Source: Anthoceros angustus (lineage: Eukaryota; Plantae; Anthocerotophyta). From it: a DNA stretch of 64,000 nucleotides. The translations under genes were made by a program, and so were the position numbers. Position 1 is the stretch's first letter. Each line of letters opens with the position of its first letter. The stretch is from the NCBI GenBank assembly GCA_010909165.1, contig MU008220.1, positions 124,001-188,000 of the forward strand. Reading direction: 5' to 3'. The notes beneath the pieces are model-generated. The model saw only the letters and a program-made list of their open reading frames with translations. It was not told where the DNA came from and searched no databases. Positions 1-14,149 of the stretch are shown here, one piece after another.

Positions 1-20
1 TCAACATTCTATCTCCAATA
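1..20 (-). repeat. Start of the 3' LTR of copia element 1
   Basis: Exact 20-nt match to 6579-6598, immediately after the PPT on the minus strand. Confidence 0.9.
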
Positions 21-30
21 CTCCCACTTG
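21..30 (-). promoter_or_regulatory. Polypurine tract (PPT)
   Basis: Minus strand reads caagtgggag directly before the LTR start TATTGGAG. Confidence 0.8.
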
Positions 31-319
31 TTGATCATTGCATAAAAGGACAGTCTTCTTCTCCGCGCGCTCCTTGTGAAAGCTGCTGCTTTTGAGCTTG
101 AGTGTGTGTGTACCAGATTGGCAGCTCCAGGCAACCGACTTCATAAGAGCGTAATGGAACAGCTCAGTGTGAAGGCGATCCCTTACAGGTGTGCCATAAG
201 CATAATAGCCGCTTACGTCCGTTTTCATTACATCACGGCTTTTGGGCGTGACTCTAAGCAAGATGTCTGCTTCTGAGTCTGAAGACCTCTCCTTACCTGC
301 CAAACATCGTGTCTACCAT

Positions 320-1179
320 AGGGATGCTCTAGGGTTTCTGCAACTAAAACGATTGCCTCTTCTTCTCGTGAGAAGGAAGGAGCGGCTCGAGCGCAAGCGG
401 TAGGACTTCTGGCGGGCGCCGCCTAGAGGCGGCCAAGGGGACAACGAGGGCAGTGCTTGAGCAACGCCGCTGAGCGCTGCGGCCGGCAGAAGAAGGCAGC
501 GGCTAAGCAGCCAAGAGCGGCATGGGGGCACCATCCCGTCGTTCTACACCGCCTGAACCTGTAAGACAGACATTCTCATGAGCTTCATTTGATGCCCACA
601 GATGTGAGGGGTGAATTCTAGTACGCCTCCCGTGAGCCACATCCTCCTGCGCCACCCAAATTCCCTGAGCCCAAAGGAGTTCGCCGACAAGTTGTCACCC
701 TCGGCTCGTTTGGAAATACATTTGGTATAGGTGTGCAGCCTCAGGGCTGAAGATGGTCCGCGTTCGCGTCCAAGATTGCCCAGGTTTTAAAGACCATGTC
801 ATCAGCTTCTACAGTAAGTTGCTTAAACTGTTTGTGGCAATCTTCCCTGTTGCATTTTTGCTGTGAGCAACATGTTTGAGCAGCCCCCTGCTAACTTGCG
901 TGTATCGACCTTGTTCATGTGTGTTGCTCCCCTCACTCCCAGCGTCAAGAACTGGAGGAAGAGAGAGCTGGAGACAAAGAGAGGATTTTCATACCAGAGA
1001 GAAAGGCGGAATTCCCCTGTTACGGTGGAGAAACGTTCACCTCCAAGTCAGATAGTCTTGCTTCCTGGGAGAAGATTTCAGACTCTTCCCCTTCAGTCAG
1101 CATGGGATCCTTGAGGTCTGCTGTGGATTACAGTACCAATGACTCGGACGATGACAGTAATGATTGGGGCTGCACCTAG
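320..1179 (+). pseudogene. Putative frameshifted antisense ORF between RNase H and PPT of copia element 1
   Basis: A ~1.15 kb GC-balanced spacer with protein-like + strand segments: PHPPAPPKFPEPK, KMVRVRVQDCPGFKDHVISFYSKLLKLF, SNMFEQPPANLRVSTLFMCVAPLTPSVKNWRKRELE, and an acidic end DYSTNDSDDDSNDWGCT* at 1179. Start position uncertain; no homolog recognised. Confidence 0.45.
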
Positions 1180-1187
1180 CTGTTAGG

Positions 1188-1700
1188 CTAGGTTTTGGTA
1201 GGTGGGGCCTCTGGGTAGCCTTCATGGTTGCCCATGCCAAGACTTTTCATGTGTCTGTAGTGTACATCCCTGCTGAGGGACTTAGTGAACACATCTGCTG
1301 GATTCTCTGCGGTTGGTATATATTCCAGCATGATTTGACCAGACTTGATGAGGTCCCTGATGAAGTGATACTCCACCTCCACGTGTTTCGTGCGAGAGTG
1401 GAATACGGGATTTTTAGCCAAGTTCATTGATCCATGGTTGTCTGTTTTTATCGTGGTGCAGGTTGGGAGTGGCAGCCCTAGTTCCTTGAACAACAATTTG
1501 CACCAAGCAATCTCCTTGGCTGAAACACGATACTCAGCCTCGATGCTTGATGTGGCAACGGTGGGCTGTTTTTTACTGGACCAGCAAATAGGTCCACTGC
1601 TACCATAACGACGTGCCACAGGCGATCTTGTGTATCAACATCTCCGCATAGTCAGTCGTGTATACATCCAACTCGATGTACGCCATGAATAATGTCGAAC
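1188..1700 (-). pseudogene. pol: Copia RNase H domain
   Basis: WSSKKQPTVATSSIEAEY, DNHGSMNLAKNPVFHSRTKHVEVEYHFIRD, ENPADVFTKSL. Confidence 0.96.
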
Positions 1701-2600
1701 TTGATCCCTATGTTTGATGTTCCTTCAAGTACCTAACGACTCTCTTAACTCCTGTCCAGTGTTTTTGTCCAGGATTTTCAAGATATTGAGAGTACGCTTG
1801 TGGTATAGGCAACATCGGTGTGTGTTGGTGCATAGATAAGTTTGCCAATGCCCTTCCTGTAAGGGATTGACCTCATCTCGTCTTTATCGCTTTGTGTTTC
1901 AGGACTCATGGACTTGCTAAACTTCAGTCCACAAGGTAGTGGGGTAGCTGTTGGTTTTGCATCCTTCAAGCCAAGCTGTTCAGCACATTCTAACAGGTAG
2001 TGAGGTTGTGTAAGAGATATAGATCTATTTTTCCTATCCCTTTGAATAAGGACTCCCAGACAGCTTTGAAGAGCTCCAAGATTCGTCATTTCAAACTTGG
2101 TAGCTAGCAGCTTGTTAATCTTGGTGATGAATGTGGGGCTATTGCAGGATAGAATCAAGTCATCTACATATCGCAAGATAGCATACCACATCACGGATCA
2201 CAGTGGTTTCTTTGCATATGATTTCCGTTAATGCGATGTAAAATATTGTCTTTACGTGAACATGTCTAACTCATAATCGATGTCTTTGTCGGGCACATAT
2301 AGTACGAAAAGTGGCTTCAGCGGAGCATATGTCTCAAAGTAATCCAGACCAGGCACTTGTGAAAAACCACGAGCTACAAGTCGTGCTTTGTACCTGTCGA
2401 ATGTTCTCTCTGCCTTCACCTTTAATTTAAACACCCACTTGCATGATACCACCTTTCGTCCAAGAGGTAACTTAGCAAGTATCCATGTCCCATTCTTGAT
2501 CAATGAATCGTATTTTGATTGAATTGCCTTGTTCCACTCTGCAGAATCAGGACGACTAAGTGCTTCCTCATAGGACTGTGGTTCAACAGGGTCTAGGTAG
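1701..2600 (-). pseudogene. pol: Copia reverse transcriptase (RVT_2), frameshifted
   Basis: NGTWILAKLPLGRKVVSCKWVFKLK, RYKARLVARGFSQVPGLDYFETYAP, YVDDLIL, PYRKGIGKLIY. Confidence 0.96.
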
Positions 2601-2999
2601 GTAGCATTAGCTATTGCTCTTCGAAAGTCCTGTGACTAATAATAGTCCGGTGCCCGTCTTTCTCTTGTAGGGTAACGGCGCTCAGGCTGTGGTGGAATTT
2701 CAGGTTCCAAAGGCTGAAGTTCAGGTTCAACTTCTGCATCACTGTCAGAAGGATCTGGAGGATCAGCATCGTCCTCAACATCATCCTCGTCAATGTCTGG
2801 GTCAGGGTTGGGCGAAGGTAAAAGGTCAGGTGGTGGAACTGGAGGAGGTTGCTGCTGCAAGGTTCAGCAAAATCAGCTTCATCTGCCTGCTCCTGCTCAT
2901 CATGTTGCTGTTCATCCCCCTAGACAATCTCCTCAAGGCGAGAATCGGAAAAGCGGTGACATCGGCAAGGCAGAAGGTCAAGATCCTCTGGGAGAGTAG

Positions 3000-3860
3000 C
3001 TCCCATTTGCGCCAAGTTCGACCTTCATCAAAGGTCACCGCGTGCATAGACCACCTTGTTCGAGTCGTCATAGAGCTTGTAAGCTTTTATACCTTGGTAT
3101 CCTATCATAAGATATTTCTTGGCCTTAGCGGTAACTTTGTTCTCTTGGCCTTAGGGATGAAGGCGTAAGCGATACATCCGAAAGTACGAAGATGTAGGAT
3201 AGCTGGCTTCCTGCCATAGAAAGCTTCAAAGGGGTCTCGATTCTGCAGTTGTAGGCAACTTTAAATAAATACAGGTCATAAGGGCTTGACCCGAGGATAG
3301 TGGCAATGAGACTTGATGGAGCATAGATGAAACCATCTCCTGCAGAGTTAGGTTCAAGCGCTCAGCAACACCGTCCTGTTGCGGGGTGTAAACAACTGTA
3401 AGTTGTCTTCCTATCCCTTCGTCCTTGCAATAGGCTTGAAATTCGTTTGATGTGAATTCACCACCATTGTCAGAACGTAGAGTTTTCAGCTGTTTTCCTG
3501 TCCACCTCTCTGCAAGTTTCATATAGTCTTTGAACAGAGAGAAGCATTCACTCTTAGCTTTCAAAATGTAAGCAATGACAAATCTTGTCTTGTCATCTGT
3601 GAATGTGAGGAAGTATCGGCCACCACCAATTGAGGGCTGCGAAAGTGGCCCACATATGTCAGTGTGCACAAGCTCAAGAACTTCTGAAGCCCGGTGAGGA
3701 GCCTTGTTCTTGAAACCATGGCGTTTAGGCGACACACAAGCTTCACGGAGGGTAAGGATGGCAAGCGTCCAATGTTTCCATCCATGCAGTCACTAGCGAC
3801 TAGTTTACGCAACTTAGCGTGAGGGTGACCTAGGCGTATATGCCATAACCTAGCTTTTCT
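3000..3860 (-). pseudogene. pol: Copia GAG-pre-integrase and integrase core
   Basis: LWH.RLGH, ELVHTDICGP, KTLRSDNGGEF, YTPQQDGVAERLN, downstream HLRTFGCIAY-like motif. Confidence 0.95.
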
Positions 3861-3899
3861 TCGCTGTTGTCTACGACTTGGAAGCTAAGTTGGCTTTGG

Positions 3900-4260
3900 C
3901 ATTACTAATGTGAGTGTGCAATCTGAAAAGATCATGGTCTGATGACCCATAAGCTAGGATTTTACGATGATCAAAAGCATCTATTATCCTACATTACATT
4001 GGAGTGAAGAGGATGTGGTTGTTATCCATGTTCAACTTCCTAGCAGTAGGTTCCTTGTCATTTCGGGCACATGATACCGTCGGTAGTAGGGCGTGATGCA
4101 AGGAAGCGGGATTTTCCTGTCTTGATGCACAGGGACACAAGTGAGCTATCGTCACCTAGGTAAACAAAGCGGTCTTTAACTAGTCGTAAAGTGAATGAGT
4201 TTCTCGAAACAAATGTCTTGTTGTGCACCTGTCAAGGAACCATTCTTGTGTGGGGTTTGC
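3900..4260 (-). pseudogene. pol: Copia aspartic protease region, frameshifted
   Basis: WFLD-GA-type motif near 4245; colinear with the cleaner element-2 copy (EWFLDTGATAHICFD, YHVPEMTRNLISV). Confidence 0.85.
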
Positions 4261-4399
4261 CTTGAGTATTCTTGTGAGACATGTGGGGTTTGCAAGAGGG
4301 GAGTAAACTTCCATTCCCCTTTGTTAGGGCTGAAGGAGAGCCTTGTTTGTCACCAACATGTGTCGAGAAGTGGAGTTACCATCCTTGCGAGGTACTCGG

Positions 4400-5185
4400 A
4401 CCTTCTTTCGACAATCATTCTCCCAATGGCACGGAATCGGCACCGTGGCATTTTCCAGCTTCTTGGGCTTCTTGTGTAGTAGCTCTTGCTAGCACCGAGT
4501 ATGTAGTTTACCTACGAAGTTGGCTTTCCTTTCCTTTGTTAGTGGTGCTCCCGCGGCTCGCTTGCCTCCCTCTTGTTGCCTCTTCACGAAGAAGAGCTCC
4601 CACTAACTCTGAAAATGTTGTTGGGGTAATGTAACTCCTGCACCTTAGCTATCTTACATCCTTGAAGGTGCGAGGCATTGTAGGAGGAGGTTAAGTGTGA
4701 CCACGCCTCGAGCGAGACATCATGAAGTCATGTGAGCAAGTCATCCTTGATGCTTTCTTGAGAAGCACTCTCAAGTTTAGACACCATTGATCTAAAATGT
4801 CCAAGATGTTTCTCAATTGTATCTCCATCTCTCATTTTGCGATTGAAGATTGCGAAATCTTTGTCATCGACTTGTTGAATTGGCTCCCGAATGGTCTTGA
4901 AGTCTGACCAAATCTCACTTTGCATCGTCAGGTCTATCTCAACATGTCGAGGTTAGGCCTCCTAATGAGGTCTTGAGCATATTCATCGCCAGCGGTCCAA
5001 GCATCCGCAATTTCTTTTCGCAATTGAAGGAGTGGAATCAGTGCAGTTAGGAGAAACAAGTCTTCACTTCACCAGCGCTTGTGTTGCAATGATCCGCATC
5101 CGCATTACCCATATATCGTAATCTGTCCCCCCAAACTGTCTTTTTCCTTGAATGCATCACCACTTGAATTGCTCGAGTCAGCCAT
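4400..5185 (-). pseudogene. gag: Copia gag, frameshifted
   Basis: ATG at 5185, MADSSNSS...DYDIWVMRMR; KMRDGDTIEKHLGHFRSMVSKLES; degenerate CCHC knuckle near 4405-4460. Confidence 0.88.
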
Positions 5186-5279
5186 GTTTAGGACTACCGT
5201 TAGTCATTCCTAAATGGATTAATATGGCTGTTAATTTATGCTCTGTCGACATGCGGTCAACGGTGAATGAGCGAAAAGA

Positions 5280-5995
5280 CACTAAGATGCTCTTAATGGG
5301 TATAGCGGCCAATTTACAAAGGGTTAGCGAGGTCGGAGTAGGTTAGTAGCTTGCATATGAACTCTGTTGTCAATCCTTTGTTTCCTAATCTCCCATCTGT
5401 TGAATGCGTAGGTAGAGCAAGAAGGACATGAATTTGGAGTGTTAAACAAATGAAACCTATCATTTTACTTGCCTTCTTACATGCAACACCTCACGAATCA
5501 GGTTTGCAAGCAAGGCGTTTCAACAAGGTAGATTTATAATCCAAATGTTCTATCTTCTCATTAGATCTCATGAAGTCTACTAGCGCAAGTCTGGTGATTG
5601 TTTGAAATCTCCTATCGACATGTTGCAGGTGTGCTTCGATCCTAGCATTCAACTGTGTAACACTTGTGTGTGGTGCTACATGTGTGGTCAGGAAACCTCT
5701 TGGGTGACCATTTCCATCAAATGCTCGAACACGCATACGGAAGATTATTAGGGTTTCTAGGTGGAGGGCAAGCAAGATGATGTTGTTCAGGAAAAAGGGT
5801 CTCAATTATAATATTGAAAGACTCCCTTAGTTCCAAGCAAATGAGTTGATTTTGTGTTGAGTCCATTCTTGAGTCGATTGGTGGATTACGCAATCGTGTG
5901 CTGTTTATTTGCGCCTTGCCCTCTGCGTGATCTGTTTGTGGAACTCGCTCAGCAGGGCGTGGCTGCCATTGCTGCCCATCCAATTGATTGGCCAC
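5280..5995 (-). CDS. Extra ORF upstream of gag (ORF0) in element 1; unknown protein with CPSC motif; frameshifted as sequenced
   Basis: LELRESFNIIIETLFPEQHHLA..PPPRNPN..RAFDGNGHPRGFLTTHVAPHTSVTQLNARIEAHL..EKIEHLD..ACKKASK.DRFHLFNTPNSCPSCSTYAFNRWEIRKQRIDNRVHMQATN. Conserved with 12395-13166, mostly by synonymous substitution. Ends approximate. Confidence 0.8.
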
Positions 5996-6334
5996 AATTT
6001 TGTGTTTTAGAAATGCTTCAAGAAGCATATTGTAATTTCTATTATGATTTTATAAAGAATTTTTGCCACTTCTGGCAGTCCTTCTAGTGTACATGGTGTC
6101 AAATTGCCTTGCAGCAATCTGACAACACGTGCACTAGGACGAACTCCTAGAAATGCAAAATCTTTCTAAATAAAAATCAAAAAAGCAAACTACAATTTGG
6201 TTTCTTGAACATTTTCTTTATTTCTTATTAGAACCTATTTTCTAATCAAGAAACAAACACAAAAATATATATATGCACATCTACATGTGCAGAATTTAAT
6301 GTGCATTCACATGAATGCAATCTACACCTAACAT

Positions 6335-6346
6335 GGCTCGATACCA
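6335..6346 (-). promoter_or_regulatory. Primer binding site (tRNA-iMet type)
   Basis: Minus strand TGGTATCGAGCC versus canonical TGGTATCAGAGC (one base missing), abutting the LTR. Confidence 0.9.
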
Positions 6347-6598
6347 TAACAAAATATGTAATAGTGCGGATCAATTACGTATTGAGTAATTACATTGTTA
6401 TGTATTCATAGAAGAATAGAGTACATAAAACAAGCAAGCAACTGAACTTAACTTAATTGCGAAAAGGCATGACCTTTGGCTAACGGATGTAACCCTAATG
6501 AAAGGGTAAGCAGCTAAAATAAGACTAGATATACATACACACTATATATCGGAATATAACTAAACCCTAAGTAATGACTCAACATTCTATCTCCAATA
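6347..6598 (-). repeat. 5' LTR of copia element 1 (~252 bp)
   Basis: Bounded by the PBS and by the end of identity with 1-20. Minus-strand termini TATT...GTTA. Contains AAACCCTAA at 6562-6570. Confidence 0.88.
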
Positions 6599-8179
6599 AT
6601 CCAAGGAGGAATGTGGAGACTTTATGAAAGGAGCGAGATGGAAAATCCCATTTACCTCGGCGAAAGGGGACAACCCACAACGTGGCACCAGGCCAGGGGG
6701 TAGGGTGCCCCCGCACTAATCTACCCTATAACCCCCAACCGCCCCCAAGATGTCGCCGTCCAAGATAGGGAAGAGCCTACTTACCACTGGTGCCGCCGAT
6801 GCCTCGTCTCCAGCACTCGTGATCGTCCTTCAGTATTCAGCTTCACCTCCATAGCACCTTGTGGAACTACTTTCGCAGACGGCCAGCCGGGCGTACACAG
6901 ATCCCGTGTCGTTGTAGTATGGGGTCCGGTCCCAAGGGAATGCATTACCTTTCCGTCCGCTTGCAATTGCCTACTCGGTTCATCTAACTTACCCTTCTTT
7001 TGCTGCGTTTGGCGACCTTCCAGCGATCCACGGCGGATGACACATGCTCTCGCGTCTTCATGTCCTGCGGACTCTACTGGGCGAGCAGCACCAGCGTAGG
7101 GGCCGGAGGAACCACTCGGTTGGCGTCCATTCTTCACAAGCCCCGGACCGGGGTTTGTATTACCCCCTACACCCTCAGCGTCCGTATCACTCACCTAGCC
7201 ATAGCCGCGCAACTTACTTTATGTCTCACCGTTACATTACTGTACAAGCACGGTATGGCCGAAAGTTTAAGGACTCGTTCTCGTCCCAGTGTTCTCTCTC
7301 TCACCCATGACTCCCTTGCCATTCTACTCTTGTTGATCTCGTCTGCACCCTGAGGTGCTTGGTTGAAGTTGCATGTCCCGGTGAGTGGGTTGCAGCACCT
7401 CTGCGTTTCCGACCGCCTTGATCCAAGTCCATCCGGGCTCTACCGCCCTCACAGTGGCCCTCGGCCTTCGCTCAATCATTGGCCATCGGGGTCCACTACA
7501 GGAAGAGCAGGGGTCCCGGTTCTCCACACCTACACTCACCACCACGCGTTAGGGTCCGTCATCAGAACCTGGATAATTCTCTCCGGAGTAGTCCGCCCGC
7601 TCGGTGAATCGGGACTCGCGTTAGTACTGGACTCACAAAAACCTGCAAGTCTAACGCGGCATCAATCCCAAAAGAAAGATCACATTACTGGGATGGCAAC
7701 CCCCCTCTTATACTACGTTCCGAGGTAGTGCCTTTATTACATTCCTAAATTGGTCCTACTGCCAGCTAACTACGCACGCGCAAGTGGCCCCAGTCCCCCG
7801 CATGGTCCTATCTACATCTACGGCGGTGAGGTTGTTGCTGACTACGGCTGACTCTTGGCCCTGGCAGTCCAATCCCCAGCTTTGGCGCCTGAGGGGCGCC
7901 CAATCGGATTATTCTTGACCCGGGTCTATGCACGCTTAGGTACATCACTTCCATCCAAAATTGGGAGTGATAACTTGCTAAGTAGATGGTGGTAAAAACG
8001 GGGTTCTTTTTTAATCCGTTTCACATACGCCTTAAAATATCTCGGTTTTGGGTGTAACTGTGGTCCGTGGGTTTAGTTGTGGCTTACGCGCTTGCTTTTG
8101 TGGAAGTGGAGCGCGAGATAAAGGTGAGGTTGCCTGTGTTTGTGTGTGGGGTTTGGTCCGAAGTAGATGGGGGAATGCA

Positions 8180-8420
8180 CGTGGGAGAATGGGGAAGTTG
8201 ATGGTGGTGTTGGAGAATGGCGGAGGTTGGTAGTGATGTGGGAGGAAGGGTTTGCGGCGGTGTGGGAGGCATGCTTTGCGGCGATGTGGGAGGGCGGCGA
8301 TGTGGGAGGGCGGCGATATGGGAGGAGGTAGGAGGATGCATTTGGGAGGAGGTGGGGAGGATGAAGGTGTGGGAGGAGGTGGGATGGCGCCAGTGTGGGA
8401 GGGCGGTGGAGGTGTTGGAA
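8180..8420 (+). repeat. G-rich degenerate minisatellite (TGTGGGAGG core)
   Basis: About eight recurrences of (g/a/t)tgggagg at irregular ~15-25 bp spacing; reads as PPTS-rich repeats on the minus strand. Confidence 0.7.
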
Positions 8421-10509
8421 GACTGCGGCGGCGGCTTAGGGTTGACCTCGCTCACAAGACAGGGACATGTCCCTTGCGGACTTTGGTCGCCTGGAGCTGG
8501 ATCTGGATATGGCCGAGGTGGAGATGGCGGGCTTCTTTGCCTCGCGCGTCGAGTTCAGCCCCTCGCAGCCCTCGTGCTCCTGTCCCATCTTTTCCCACCA
8601 CAGCGGTAGTGGCTCGCGACAGTGCGGCCGTGTGTGCCTGGAAGGAGGCAGCTCCGAGTCTTGGTGGTGGGCCAGGCGGACCTTGGATTGGGGCCACAGT
8701 GGCGGGCGCCATCGGATGATGGGCGATATCGGGTTTGCCCGAGTGGCATCTGAAGGGCGATGTTTTGGTGGCGTTTGGTGGGTTTGAGAGAGACCACAGG
8801 GTGGCTAAGTGTTATCCTTGTAGCAGTATGAAGAATCATCGACTGGGATTCTAGCCCTTCTCTCAACGCGTCAAGTGGAGCTCAAATTGTCTTGAGGAGG
8901 TACGTGCCACCCTCTCTCTCGTTTAGTTCCCGATCGGCAACCTCCTCCCCTTTATGATTGTGAGCACCTTTGTATGGGATATACACTTTCCCGTTCACCC
9001 ACCTTCCAATGTTGAAGTTCGACAAGCGTGAGTGCCACTCCTTTACGACACGTCCTCAACTCTTGCTTGAAGCTACTTGCAGTCCAGCTCAGCAACCAGC
9101 ATTTCCTCTCACACTTCAAACCTAGTATGAGACCATGGTGACCATTGGTGTACTACCATAAACAGGATTTTGCAAGCGTTTCTTGACAGGATGATGCCCG
9201 CTTTTGTGGACTACCTGCTCGAGGACTACAAGAGATAACAGCGGGGAGCTGGTCTTCCCTCCCATCAATTTGAATGACTCCGTGACGTAGAGCAAGGTAC
9301 GGGATTTTGGCTTTTTGTTGGGGAGTGACCGTCCTGACAGATGTGGTGGAAGTGGACTCGTGCTGATCGGGTTGATTGGACTTTTTTTTTTGCAGCTTGA
9401 CAACTTGTATGGATCCCGTCACTCTCTGCCCGATGGACTCATGAGGGCACAAAAGGTTGTCATTGCTTCAGATAGAAGGAAACAAATGGCTTGTGCACTT
9501 GACACTGCCAGTTCACATTCATTTCAGTGGACATGTTAATGGTAACATGATGCAGCATAGATTGGGCTAATCATGTCCTGTTTGGTTTTTTCTGCTGTAG
9601 AGTGAAGGCCAGTCTGTAATCATGGAGTGGAGGCTGTTTGGGAGGATGCAAGCTGTGTGGTCGCCCCTCTTGTGGTGAAGTGGGAGGAGCCAGAGTGGCA
9701 ATATGGAAGTTGGGTGTCTTTGGGGTTGGAGCTTGATGTTGCTTGGTTTGTGTAGCTAGAGAAAATGGCATCTATGGGATTTTGGACGATCTTTTCCTTG
9801 CTATTTTCCTTGCTCTTCTACTCATGTTTCCAAGCATATTGCTAGGCGTACTAGGAGTCACTTGCGACGTCAAGAGGATAGATATTGATGTGACATATTG
9901 AGGGCTCCACGCCGCCTAGTGGTCCTAGCCCGCAATGAGCCGGGATGCCTCCTCTAGATCCACGGAAGGTGATTGTTCGACACTACTAGAAACACTGCCT
10001 ATGTAAGCGTTTTTGTTGTAGTTCTTGTTATGGTGATCACAAAGCGTTACAACGGATGGTATGGGAGACTCATCACACAAGCCTAAGTTTGTTACATTGT
10101 CATTACCCTTCTCTCTACTTGAATGGGTGCGACATGCTTCCTTCAAATCCCTCTTTCTCACTTATCTATAGTAAAAATAGTTTCACTACTTGGTACCGGA
10201 GTGAGGTCCCAGTTCTAGTTCCATTGTCGATCGGGCCCGTGAACTCCCTTGTAATTATGTTCATCCACGCCCTCCCACGCGTGGTCCGCAGCCTCTTGTC
10301 ATGCTCGCTTTTTCATGCACCTTCCCTTAAAATATCGGAAACCTCACGCCACATCCACTTGGTGGGTTCCTCTTGCTCGCACACCGGTGGGCGGGTTCTC
10401 CACGCGGAGCGTTTGGCTTTTTTTGTCTTGTCTTGGGTATCCGGGCCCGGGGCGTGCCTTGTGGAAAACCGTGACATGGTGATGTTGTTCGGTACCCTAA
10501 AAAGTATTT

Positions 10510-11390
10510 TCGGAAGTGGCATATGTCACGATCCAACCCATACGAGATGGACAATGTACCAGCAGACGGTCGGTCATCTGATGAGGTACTATGNTCTTGT
10601 CTTCTGCGTGAATGTGAGGAAATATCGCCACCACCTATAGAGGGCCGCGAGAAGGGCCCATATGTCGTGTGTACAAGCTCAAGGATTTTGAGGCCTGTGA
10701 GGAGCTTTGTTCTTGAAGGCTGCTTGATGGCGTTTGACACACAGCTTCGCTGAGAGGGTAAGAGTGGCAACCGCCAATTTTCCCATCACAGTCACTAGTT
10801 GCTAGTTTCTGCAGTTTAGCACTGTGAGGGTGACCTAAGCGTGTATGCCATAACATAGCCTTGTCTTCCTGCTTTGCAGCTGTCTCTGGCGACTGGGAAG
10901 ATGAATTGGCTTTGGCATGACTAAGGTGAGTGTGCAGCCTGAAGAGGTCATGGTCTGATGACCCATAAGCTAGGATTTTACGATGATCAAAAGCATCGAT
11001 AATCCTACATTCTGTTGGAGTGAATAAGATATGAGAATTATTATCCATGTTCAACTTCCTAACAGAGATTAGGTTCCTTGTCATTTCAGGTACATGGTAC
11101 ACATCTGTAAGGAGAAGTGTAATGCCTGAAGGAACTGGAAGCCATGCGTTTTGACTGAGACACAGTGAGCTATCGTCACCTAGGTAAACAAACTGATCTT
11201 TAACTAGTCTGTAAGTGACGAATGCATTTCTATCAAAGCAAATGTGTGCTGTGGCACCTGTATCAAGGAACCACTCTTGTATGGGCTTGCCTTGTGTATT
11301 TGCTGATAGACAAGTGGGGTTAGCAAGAGGGTGAATAAACTTCCTGTTCCCTACTGTTAGGGCTGAAGGAGAGCCTTGTTTTGTCACCAC
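10510..11390 (-). pseudogene. pol: Copia protease, GAG-pre-integrase and start of integrase (element 2)
   Basis: ORF 10635..11390: EWFLDTGATAHICFD, YHVPEMTRNLISVRKL, LWHTRLGHPH. Confidence 0.93.
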
Positions 11391-11419
11391 AACATGTGTC
11401 TGAGAAGGGAGTTAGCCTC

Positions 11420-12289
11420 TGCAGGTACTCCTACCGCTTCTTACGACACTGCCTCCCAATGACTGGAATTTGGCACCAGTTGCACTTTCCAGCCTTCTTG
11501 GGCTTCTTCTGTGTAGTAGCCTTTTGAGAGCTGCTAGCACCCGAGGTATTTTGTTTACCTCTGAAGTTGGGCTTCCCGCCCTTTCCTTTGTTGTTGGTGT
11601 ATAAGGCCTGCTGCTTGCCAGCACGTTTGTTTGATCCTCTTGTAGCTTCCTCCTGGAGGAGAGCTCCCACTAACTCTGAAAATGTTCTTTGGGGCAATGT
11701 GACATTTGCAGCCTTTGCAATCTTCTTTCCTTGAAGTTGTGAGGCATTATAAGATGTCACAAAGTGTGACCACGAGTCAGGTAGGGACATTACAAAATAC
11801 AGTATGAGCATGTCTTCGTGAGATCGGTTCTGTGTTGCACTCTCGAGCTTGGACACCAAAGATCTAAAGTATCCAAGGTGTTTCTCGATTGTATCCCCAT
11901 CTCTCATTTTGCGCTTTGAAGATTGCGGATTGTCGCCATCTGACATGTTGTGTTAACTCCAAAGATACGATCCGTTAGTCTCGACTATATCTCACGCAGC
12001 TTTGCTCAAGTTTGTCTTAACATGTCAGAGGTTAGACCACTCCTGATGATGTACTGAGCAGACTCATCCTTGAGTGTCCAAGTATCCTGCAACTTCTTTT
12101 CAAAGAATCGAAAGAGAAGAGTCCAAGAGTGCAGTAGTGAGTAGGGTATTTATCTTCACCCTTCACCACTCTCCAAAGTCGCTTATGTTGCAATGCTCCA
12201 CGACCGCATGACCCATATGTCGAAGTCTAACCCCCAAATCTGTCCTTTTCCTTGAATACATCAATACTCGAATTGTTCGAGTCAGCCAT
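11420..12289 (-). pseudogene. gag: Copia gag (element 2)
   Basis: ATG at 12289 (MADSNNSS); KMRDGDTIEKHLGYFRSLVSKLES..SLPDSWSHFVTS..LLQEE; zinc knuckle KCNWCQ. Confidence 0.92.
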
Positions 12290-12394
12290 GTCTAGGACTA
12301 ACGTTAGCCCTTCCTAAAAGTTAGGAGCTTATGACGGTAATGCACCGTCTCGACCTATCCTGCAGTCAATGTGGCTGATTCGTGATGTAATGAG

Positions 12395-13166
12395 TTAGGG
12401 TAAGATGCTATTGTCGCATCTAGGTATGCTGCTCTCTGCAGCAAACCTACAAGGGTTCAGCAGGGTCAGCAAGTCTGTCAGCCTGAGGTAGGTTAACAGC
12501 TTGCATATTGACTCTGTTTTCAATTTTCTGTTTCCTACTTTCCCATCTATTGAAAGCATATGTAGAACAAGATGGGCACGAGTTTGGAGTATTAAACATG
12601 TGAAACCTATCTGTTTTGCTTGCTTTCTTACATGCAGTGCCTCTGATTGCAGGGTTTGCAAGTAATGCAGGCTTCAACAAGGTAAGTAGTTTAAAATCCA
12701 GGTGCTCTATCTTTTCTATAATGTCTCGTGATATCAACACTAGATGCAAGCAGAGCTGATTGTTTGAAATCTCCGTCGACATGTCTTGATGCCAATCCTA
12801 TCAATCAATTGTGTAACACTTGTGTGTGGTGTGACATGTGGTTAGGAAACCTCCGGGTGACCATTTCCATCAAATGCACGCTGTACACGTATTTCTGGGA
12901 GTTGATTAGGATTTCTAGGTGGAGGAACGAATGCAAGGTGACGTTGGTCAGGAAATAGGGTTTCAATTATAGTATTGAGAGACTCCCTTAATTCCAGCGC
13001 AAGTATAGGTTGATCTTGTGTCTGAATCATCCATTCTTGGGTGAGTTGATGGAGAATTCCAGCCACGTTGTGCCTGTTTACTTGTGTGCCTCCGCCGCGA
13101 CTCATGTGGAACTCGCCACAGGCGAGGCTGCCATTGCTGTCCTCCATGTAGATTAGCCATTGACAT
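12395..13166 (-). CDS. Extra ORF upstream of gag (ORF0) in element 2; frameshifted as sequenced
   Basis: MSMANLHGGQQWQPR..LELRESLNTIIETLFPDQRHLAFVPPPRNPNQLPEIRVQRAFDGNGHP..EKIEHLDFK..ACKKASKTDRFHMFNTPNSCPSCSTYAFNRWESRKQKIENRVNMQAVN. Confidence 0.8.
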
Positions 13167-13489
13167 GGCAACATTTTTATGTTTTCTGAAATGCTTCAAG
13201 AAGCATATTGTAATTTCTATATGTTTTTATAAAGAATTTTTGCCTCTTTAGGCAGTCGTTCTAGTTTCGATATCAAATTGTCGAATTTGACGCACTAGGA
13301 ATGACTCTAGAAAAGCAAATTTTCTAAATAAAAGTCAAGAAAGCAAATCACAAGTTATTTTCTTGAACATTTTCTATATTTCTGATTAGAAGCTATTTTC
13401 TAATCAAGAAACAACATAAAAATTTATATATGCACATCTACATGTGCAATTTAATGTGCATTCTCATGAATGCAATCTACACCTAGCAA

Positions 13490-13501
13490 GGCTCGATACC
13501 A
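13490..13501 (-). promoter_or_regulatory. Primer binding site (tRNA-iMet type), element 2
   Basis: Minus strand TGGTATCGAGCC, same as element 1. Confidence 0.88.
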
Positions 13502-13740
13502 TTACGAAATATGGAAATGGTGTAGACCAATTACATTAGGTAATTACATTATAATAAATATGTTCATAAGAATGAATGATAGAATAACCAAGAAAGGCTA
13601 GACTTAATCTAAGTGAAAAGACATAACTCTTCATAAAGGGGCGAACCCTAATGAAAGGGTAAGCCAATTTGAAATCTATATACACACCACATATATCTAG
13701 GTAATATCGAACCCTAATGAGTCAACACCTATTCATAGTA
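13502..13740 (-). repeat. 5' LTR of copia element 2 (~240 bp)
   Basis: Colinear with 6347-6598 and shares the 21-mer aaccctaatgaaagggtaagc. Right boundary inferred by alignment only. Confidence 0.78.
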
Positions 13741-14149
13741 CCGTAGCTACTCTAATCCTTTTGCTTATTATGCCTCAAGTATACAAAGTGCCATATCATC
13801 CACTTTACTCCATCCTTTCCTCGCACTGCCTTGTGGGGCCACTTTGATTCTCAACCACCCAACCACCTTAACAAAGGTGCAACTCAACGTGACTATTAAG
13901 GTGGGTGAGCAAAGTGGCCAAAGCAACGTGGTCTCTTCTCGCCTTCCCGACTACCATCCTTCTCCATTTTCATCCTCCCCGCACTTTTGATCCAATCCTC
14001 CGCTTGGGGAATCTTACAATCCTTATTTTCCCATTCAAATCGCTCCCCAAAGAAAAGAAAATCACACACACAACCGCTTTCCCGGTTATTAACATCCAAT
14101 GCGATCTCCCACATCGCCTTCTCATTTGTTGGCATCCTCACCAACCTAG

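Follow-up and report, generated by a model that had tools for sequence, protein, structure and literature searches.

Two Ty1/copia elements lie on the minus strand of the window, the 64-kb stretch of DNA analysed here, and both carry an additional sense frame (ORF0) of about 238 codons (copy 1) or 253 codons (copy 2) between the leader and gag. To judge from these two noisy copies, ORF0 is a gene of its own that a copia lineage has kept under purifying selection, as constrained as pol. We regard its existence as a gene as highly probable. The initial annotation had already proposed a selected accessory ORF ahead of gag in both elements, and this is upheld by an excess of synonymous changes, by dN/dS and by a stop that separates ORF0 from gag. 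Its limits, previously given as 5995-5280 and 13166-12395, are shifted by an AUG (6028/13206) and a stop (5316-5314/12449-12447) common to both copies, and become 6028-5314 and 13206-12447.

The two elements are 74% identical over 3157 aligned columns. Copy 1 extends from its 5' LTR (6598-6347) to the window edge, which cuts its 3' LTR just after the start; copy 2 begins at about 13737 and its similarity to copy 1 ends near 10595. Their features are as follows.

6347..6598, minus strand: 5' LTR of copy 1, about 250 bp, beginning with TA rather than TG and followed by the primer binding site (PBS)
6335..6346, minus strand: PBS of copy 1, identical in sequence to 13501-13490 in copy 2
6197..6334, minus strand: leader of copy 1, AU-rich, with three short hairpins common to both copies and several short upstream ORFs
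6029..6196, minus strand: long stem-loop of copy 1, its 3' base abutting the ORF0 AUG
5314..6028, minus strand: ORF0 of copy 1, about 238 codons, broken
5186..5313, minus strand: spacer of copy 1, poorly conserved, holding a U-rich AG present in both copies and, 9 codons ahead of the gag AUG, an in-frame stop
4330..5185, minus strand: gag of copy 1, broken, aligned to the copy 2 gag (Retrotran_gag_2 match)
1188..4329, minus strand: pol of copy 1 (protease, integrase, RT, RNase H), broken, with Pfam matches rve and RVT_2
263..1179, plus strand: candidate second extra ORF of copy 1, antisense to the element between pol and the polypurine tract, from a six-frame reading
1..29, minus strand: polypurine tract of copy 1 (29-21) and the first bases of its 3' LTR (20-1), cut by the window edge
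13207..13737, minus strand: 5' LTR, PBS (13501-13490), leader and long stem-loop (about 13357-13207) of copy 2
12447..13206, minus strand: ORF0 of copy 2, about 253 codons, broken
10595..12289, minus strand: gag, protease and start of integrase of copy 2, from alignment and Pfam

Copy 2 has Pfam matches to Retrotran_gag_2, Pol_BBD and gag_pre-integrs, and copy 1 matches rve and then RVT_2, so that integrase precedes RT. Taken over both copies and the RNase H relatives, the order is gag-protease-integrase-RT-RNase H, as in Ty1/copia elements. LTRs, PBS and polypurine tract are all in place, the 3' LTR being represented by the 20 nt inside the window, which are identical to the start of the 5' LTR at 20 of 20 positions. 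In copy 1 the LTR (6598; 20) has its TA start directly after the polypurine tract, and no CA end abuts the PBS. The PBS of both copies is presumably of the plant initiator-Met type, resembling the 3' end of a full initiator tRNA-Met with one base off; this resemblance does not fit the half-tRNA or self priming of Osser, Bryco, Bianca and TAR. Integrase relatives reach at best 55% identity, and in a quick tree of 69 rows the integrase forms a long branch without a close relative. The nearest named integrase relatives are from coral and flies (53-55% identity) and not from plants, which may only reflect the reach of a word-based search. Judged by sequence, both elements belong to a divergent copia lineage.

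ORF0 is unbroken in neither copy. Its longest open stretches are 104 and 117 codons, compared with 74 and 173 codons in gag and 187 of 1047 codons in pol. The frame changes around 5930-5860, 5735, 5463 and 5337 in copy 1, which also has one in-frame stop (5493-5491), and around 13186, 13130-13050, 12855, 12841 and 12790-12740 in copy 2. Indels number 58 over 691 columns in ORF0, 63 over 834 in gag and 49 over 710 in the protease-integrase region (PR-INT). Breaks are equally dense in gag and pol, and they look like long-read errors. Four of four near-identical repeat pairs elsewhere in the window have more indels than substitutions (100 vs 62, 14 vs 10, 40 vs 22 and 18 vs 4). Among the single-base indels of ORF0 outside homopolymers, 9 of 29 lie near CAG/CTG against a background of 14%, which we take to fit methylation-linked base-calling errors. 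The DNA itself has the look of uncorrected long-read sequence. A third copy of ORF0 was found neither in the 64-kb window nor among 33 other loci or 132 proteins.

The 40-codon block at 5461-5342 (12611-12492 in copy 2), aligned by hand in the initial annotation, was reproduced exactly on recomputation. Amino acids are identical at 34 of 40 positions; 20 codons are identical, 14 differ only synonymously and 6 non-synonymously, with the same six replacements as reported before (L/M, R/K, D/E, H/N, T/V and I/S). Substitutions are distributed 3/3/16 over the codon positions (16 of 22 at third positions). As this block was hand-picked and is the best-conserved part, the rest of ORF0 was tested separately, using gap-free blocks of at least 18 nt and choosing the best frame alike for the data and for 2000 shuffles. 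With the 40-codon block removed, 12 blocks of ORF0 (330 nt) contain 23 synonymous and 15 non-synonymous codons (P=0.0005); for the whole frame the numbers are 37 and 21 in 451 of about 715 nt. No synonymous excess appears in the leader (5/13, P=0.27) or LTR (3/10, P=0.56) controls, or on the antisense strand of ORF0 (12/45, P=0.95). Both gag and PR-INT are positive in the same test, and so is the antisense strand of gag. Taken by themselves, the first 60 codons of ORF0 fall short of significance (6/3, P=0.087). A frame-blind test for periodicity finds nothing outside the 40-codon block (P=0.62), but it likewise missed PR-INT (P=0.12). The dN/dS comparison proposed in the initial annotation gives 0.12 for ORF0 (95% CI 0.06-0.23; 140 codons), or 0.15 without the 40-codon block, which is not near 1; the corresponding values are 0.37 in gag, 0.18 in PR-INT and 0.75 in the leader, used as a control.

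The ORF0 product is likely to be a soluble accessory protein, largely helical, for which binding of zinc and of nucleic acid is predicted. A C-x9-H-x7-C-x2-C motif is kept in both copies, and zinc binding is predicted from this single motif; Pfam and family searches gave no zinc-binding family match for these Cys/His residues. The N-terminal part is neutral to acidic, and the middle and C-terminal pieces are basic (pI 9.4-10.5). No piece has a membrane segment, the middle and C-terminal pieces being free of hydrophobic segments (maximum 19-residue hydropathy 1.08), and an env-like membrane protein was rejected on this ground. A single-sequence model of the middle piece starts with two strands and a helix and is described as a hairpin plus a 51-residue helix, much of the helix having a pLDDT of at least 90 (mean pLDDT 82, pTM 0.43). 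For the C-terminal half, the model is a weak helix-loop-helix about the Cys/His motif, at low confidence (pLDDT 56). In the Atlas, the middle piece scores as protein-like (2534) and the C-terminal half scores low (1185).

Within the searches made, ORF0 is an orphan, with no homologue or fold match that would indicate its function. The fold search with the middle-piece model returned nothing at E 0.001 in PDB or BFVD, only generic long helices with Z of at most 5.9. Two large protein searches, covering the C-terminal half only, gave no matches to a C-terminal stretch of 107 aa among 1.84 billion representatives and none among 244 candidates for one of 115 aa from 5.8 billion proteins (lengths 203-2000 only). 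Relatives of ORF0 were present in 0 of 82 metagenome contigs and 0 of 38 genome contigs, and the middle piece matched 0 of 17 viral contigs. A single match of the C-terminal half among 80 viral contigs runs antisense to a giant-virus gene and was set aside as chance. Pfam, NCBIfam and PDB sequence searches gave nothing significant, the best being MerR-type helix matches (E 0.016-1.3). Eight of the 32 RNase H relatives, which share 38-46% identity in near-full-length matches, have an ORF of at least 700 aa, and an ORF0-like gene was seen in none of the eight within the DNA compared. The upstream ORFs of one RNase H relative (L006) proved to be a split gag and not ORF0-like.

Other readings of the frame were weighed against this evidence. 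If ORF0 were an N-terminal part of Gag, connected through a frameshift or a splice, the connection could run through other frames that are open over parts of the spacer in each copy, where noise could hide a junction. We hold this to be highly improbable, as the ORF0 frame stops at the same position in both copies and conservation is lowest in the spacer (79% over aligned columns, 126 vs 157 nt). The gag frame, moreover, has in both copies a stop 9 codons before a strong AUG, which argues that ORF0 is not part of Gag. ORF0 might instead be a passenger, once functional or captured from the host or a mobile element, with selection that predates its capture or decay. Both copies are broken, only two are visible and the gene was not seen in the eight relatives with a long ORF, within the DNA compared, all of which would suit a passenger, but the breaks are as dense in pol and synonymous divergence is no lower in ORF0 (0.71) than in gag (0.48) or PR-INT (0.41), with dN equal or lower. 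Constraint therefore acted while the copies diverged as whole elements, and a passenger is very unlikely. Finally, the product could be a divergent ubiquitin-like (beta-grasp) domain that acts through the host ubiquitin/SUMO system and not on nucleic acid. The two strands and helix at the start of the middle piece would agree with this, as would its placement by the Atlas near clusters of Rad60-SUMO-like (0.83, rank 16 of 30) and of ubiquitin-family proteins (0.82, rank 20). However, both scores are below the lead threshold of 0.9, and the single-sequence model is dominated by a long helix. When 104 natural ubiquitin genes were built into a profile, itself narrow (mean identity 86%), the best E was 22 among 938 pieces of the window, and with the same narrow profile HHalign probabilities are at most 4.9%, the in-frame middle piece ranking 156 of 280. 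A ubiquitin-like domain stays a weak lead and is quite improbable in our view.

The leader between PBS and ORF0 (6029-6334 in copy 1, 13207-13489 in copy 2) is non-coding; it is more conserved than ORF0 itself (about 90% vs 86% nucleotide identity), and its hairpins and long stem-loop exceed the coding regions in general in this respect. It folds well in both copies (z -9.1 in copy 1, -4.5 in copy 2) into three short hairpins and one long stem. The latter is a stem-loop of roughly 170 nt whose 3' base directly adjoins the ORF0 AUG in either copy (z -8.1 and -4.2). Of 37 folding windows in copy 1 the stem is the strongest (z -11.5). Copy 2 has, among 31 folding windows elsewhere, one that folds better than the stem (z -4.6). 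When the copy 1 structure is projected on copy 2, 7 of 71 pairs are broken and 12 are gapped. The 49 consensus pairs of the stem include 5 with one-sided changes and 1 with a two-sided change, a count for which the shuffle control (258 of 500) is uninformative with two sequences only. Rfam has no matches in 5000-14000. The end of ORF0 and the spacer of copy 2 (12301-12600, minus strand) also fold well (z -3.3 to -4.6), and the counterpart in copy 1 does not. Several short upstream ORFs lie in the leader of copy 1 (6197..6334), and one of 11 codons (6212-6177), kept in both copies, runs into the 5' arm of the stem. Neither the conserved stem-loop nor the candidate antisense frame 3' of pol formed part of the initial annotation.

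Ribosomes would meet more than 20 AUGs ahead of gag. ORF0 contains 17 and 18, where 11-12 are expected, and the leader contains 8 and 7. Because AUGs are not depleted, leaky scanning to gag is unlikely and was rejected, and the earlier suggestion that gag needs splicing, reinitiation or internal initiation is supported. The most likely route to gag would be splicing. Both copies share a weak donor-like AG/GT at 6329-6328, just after the PBS, an acceptor-like site inside the stem (near 6150) and a U-rich AG just before gag (near 5212). We judge the shared donor-like site to match the consensus poorly, and AU-rich DNA commonly contains motifs of this kind. In retroviruses the PBS is followed by a donor and then by the packaging signal, and we model the proposed splicing on this layout. 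Joining of the donor after the PBS to the AG before gag would yield a Gag-Pol RNA that skips ORF0, joining of the same donor to the AG inside the stem would yield an ORF0 RNA, and the unspliced RNA with its hairpins intact would be the packaged template. The basic C-terminal half with its Cys/His motif might then bind RNA or DNA of the element itself, probably the leader stem, and the protein could help the unspliced RNA to escape silencing, leave the nucleus or be packaged. A copia precedent is BARE1, in which splicing and separate translated and packaged RNA pools are reported (PMC3735527); for the ORF0 element such pools are proposed by inference. The model as a whole, a selected ORF0 gene with a zinc- and nucleic-acid-binding product and Gag-Pol made from a spliced RNA that skips ORF0, has in our estimate about an even chance of being correct.

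Alternatively, the unspliced RNA may be translated directly, with the stem serving as a shunt or internal entry site for the ORF0 AUG; gag would then depend on reinitiation or on a further entry site. In plant pararetroviruses the first long ORF is marked by a stem (PMC5902531), and here the stem ends exactly at the AUG of the first long ORF in both copies, which also keep the 11-codon upstream ORF. The leaders of CaMV and RTBV are similar in having short upstream ORFs, a large stem-loop before the first long ORF and small accessory ORFs ahead of the capsid gene. For ribosome shunting, however, a short 5'-proximal ORF must stop ahead of the stem, and the stem must be followed by an unstructured landing stretch (PMC5902531). 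In our elements the closest short ORF runs into the stem and stops there (6177), so that the layout of a pararetroviral shunt is absent; no landing stretch separates the stem from the AUG, the PBS is situated upstream of the stem and ORF0 is not depleted in AUGs. Direct translation would also leave that of gag unexplained, and we consider it unlikely.

Forward extra ORFs 5' of gag are given in REXdb for 21% of Ogre, 33% of Tekay and 23% of TatII elements (PMC6317226), and the ORF0 of rice Retrosat2 is reported as divergent (PMC3485330). These resemble the ORF0 described here in being sense ORFs of obscure role that follow the 5' LTR, precede gag and are not matched by anything outside the elements. 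They differ in that our elements have the copia domain order and a Met-type PBS, with no sequence link found, and in that ORF0 is constrained like pol whereas that of Retrosat2 is described as divergent. The forward extra ORF 5' of gag is an Ogre-like feature; the gypsy domain order and tRNA-Arg priming of Ogre are not seen, as integrase precedes RT and the PBS is of Met type. The initial annotation had treated a 5' extra ORF as a hallmark of gypsy Ogre elements and placed the known copia extra ORF (SIRE env-like) 3' of pol. This overstated the novelty, as the REXdb entries of the copia lineages Bianca (5) and Ikeros (4) are read here as percent of elements with forward 5' extra ORFs, the two values printed in each row being assigned to the two 5' columns (PMC6317226). 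Bianca and Ikeros share with our elements the copia superfamily and an extra ORF ahead of gag, and Ikeros also a mean size of 6.9 kb and tRNA-Met priming, whereas Bianca primes with a half tRNA-Ile. In both lineages the ORF is a minority feature, counted at 250 codons or more, and the likeness is one of description, the part of the source available giving no conservation or function. SIRE, like our elements, is a copia lineage with a lineage-wide extra ORF, an env-like ORF present in 74% of its elements (PMC6317226), but this lies 3' of pol, and env-like ORFs are described with transmembrane segments (PMC7264820), which the ORF0 pieces lack. The available part of a review of extra ORFs deals almost wholly with 3' ORFs (PMC7264820). 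In the literature searched, with most subscription journals falling outside, no paper on a conserved copia ORF 5' of gag was found, and the portions available of PMC2806351 and PMC2533021 gave none.

The 1.15 kb that follows RNase H, present in one noisy copy, has no long forward frame, and an antisense frame there looks more protein-like. This frame (263-1179, plus strand) is broken, has about 300 codons and contains a basic stretch, a cluster of cysteines near 810-940 and an acidic tail. We take the spacing of the cysteines to be roughly that of a Zn2Cys6 cluster; no Pfam match was obtained for any of five pieces of this one copy. A copia lineage resembling complex retroviruses, with a regulatory gene ahead of gag whose product binds the leader stem and an antisense zinc-cluster gene after pol, can be envisaged, although we think it distinctly unlikely.

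The rest of the window (13746-64000) is a tandem array with a unit of 8.3-9.5 kb, which contains a gypsy-like integrase tail and a LINE-like RT (weak RVT_1 match, E 0.014) beside what we take to be a restriction-like endonuclease motif. Sub-repeats of 0.9-2 kb occur at 46-57 kb. CAG/CTG is depleted in the array (13800-64000; 0.43 of expected) and not in the copia copies (1.03 and 1.18), which are instead depleted in CG (0.61 and 0.50 of expected). Together with the plant-type Met PBS, the CAG/CTG depletion of these neighbouring repeats points to a plant as host.

Extra ORFs of LTR retrotransposons are mostly divergent and their use is obscure, and reviews still ask whether they are functional (PMC6317226; PMC7264820). 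ORF0 sits in a copia element, is constrained like pol, has no relative among those searched and adjoins a conserved RNA structure, which makes it a compact and testable case. Should the lineage be of the complex kind, an ORF0 product of a new family would control export, translation or packaging of the unspliced RNA. The element offers a test case both for an accessory gene and for how gag is reached on a copia RNA that carries two genes.
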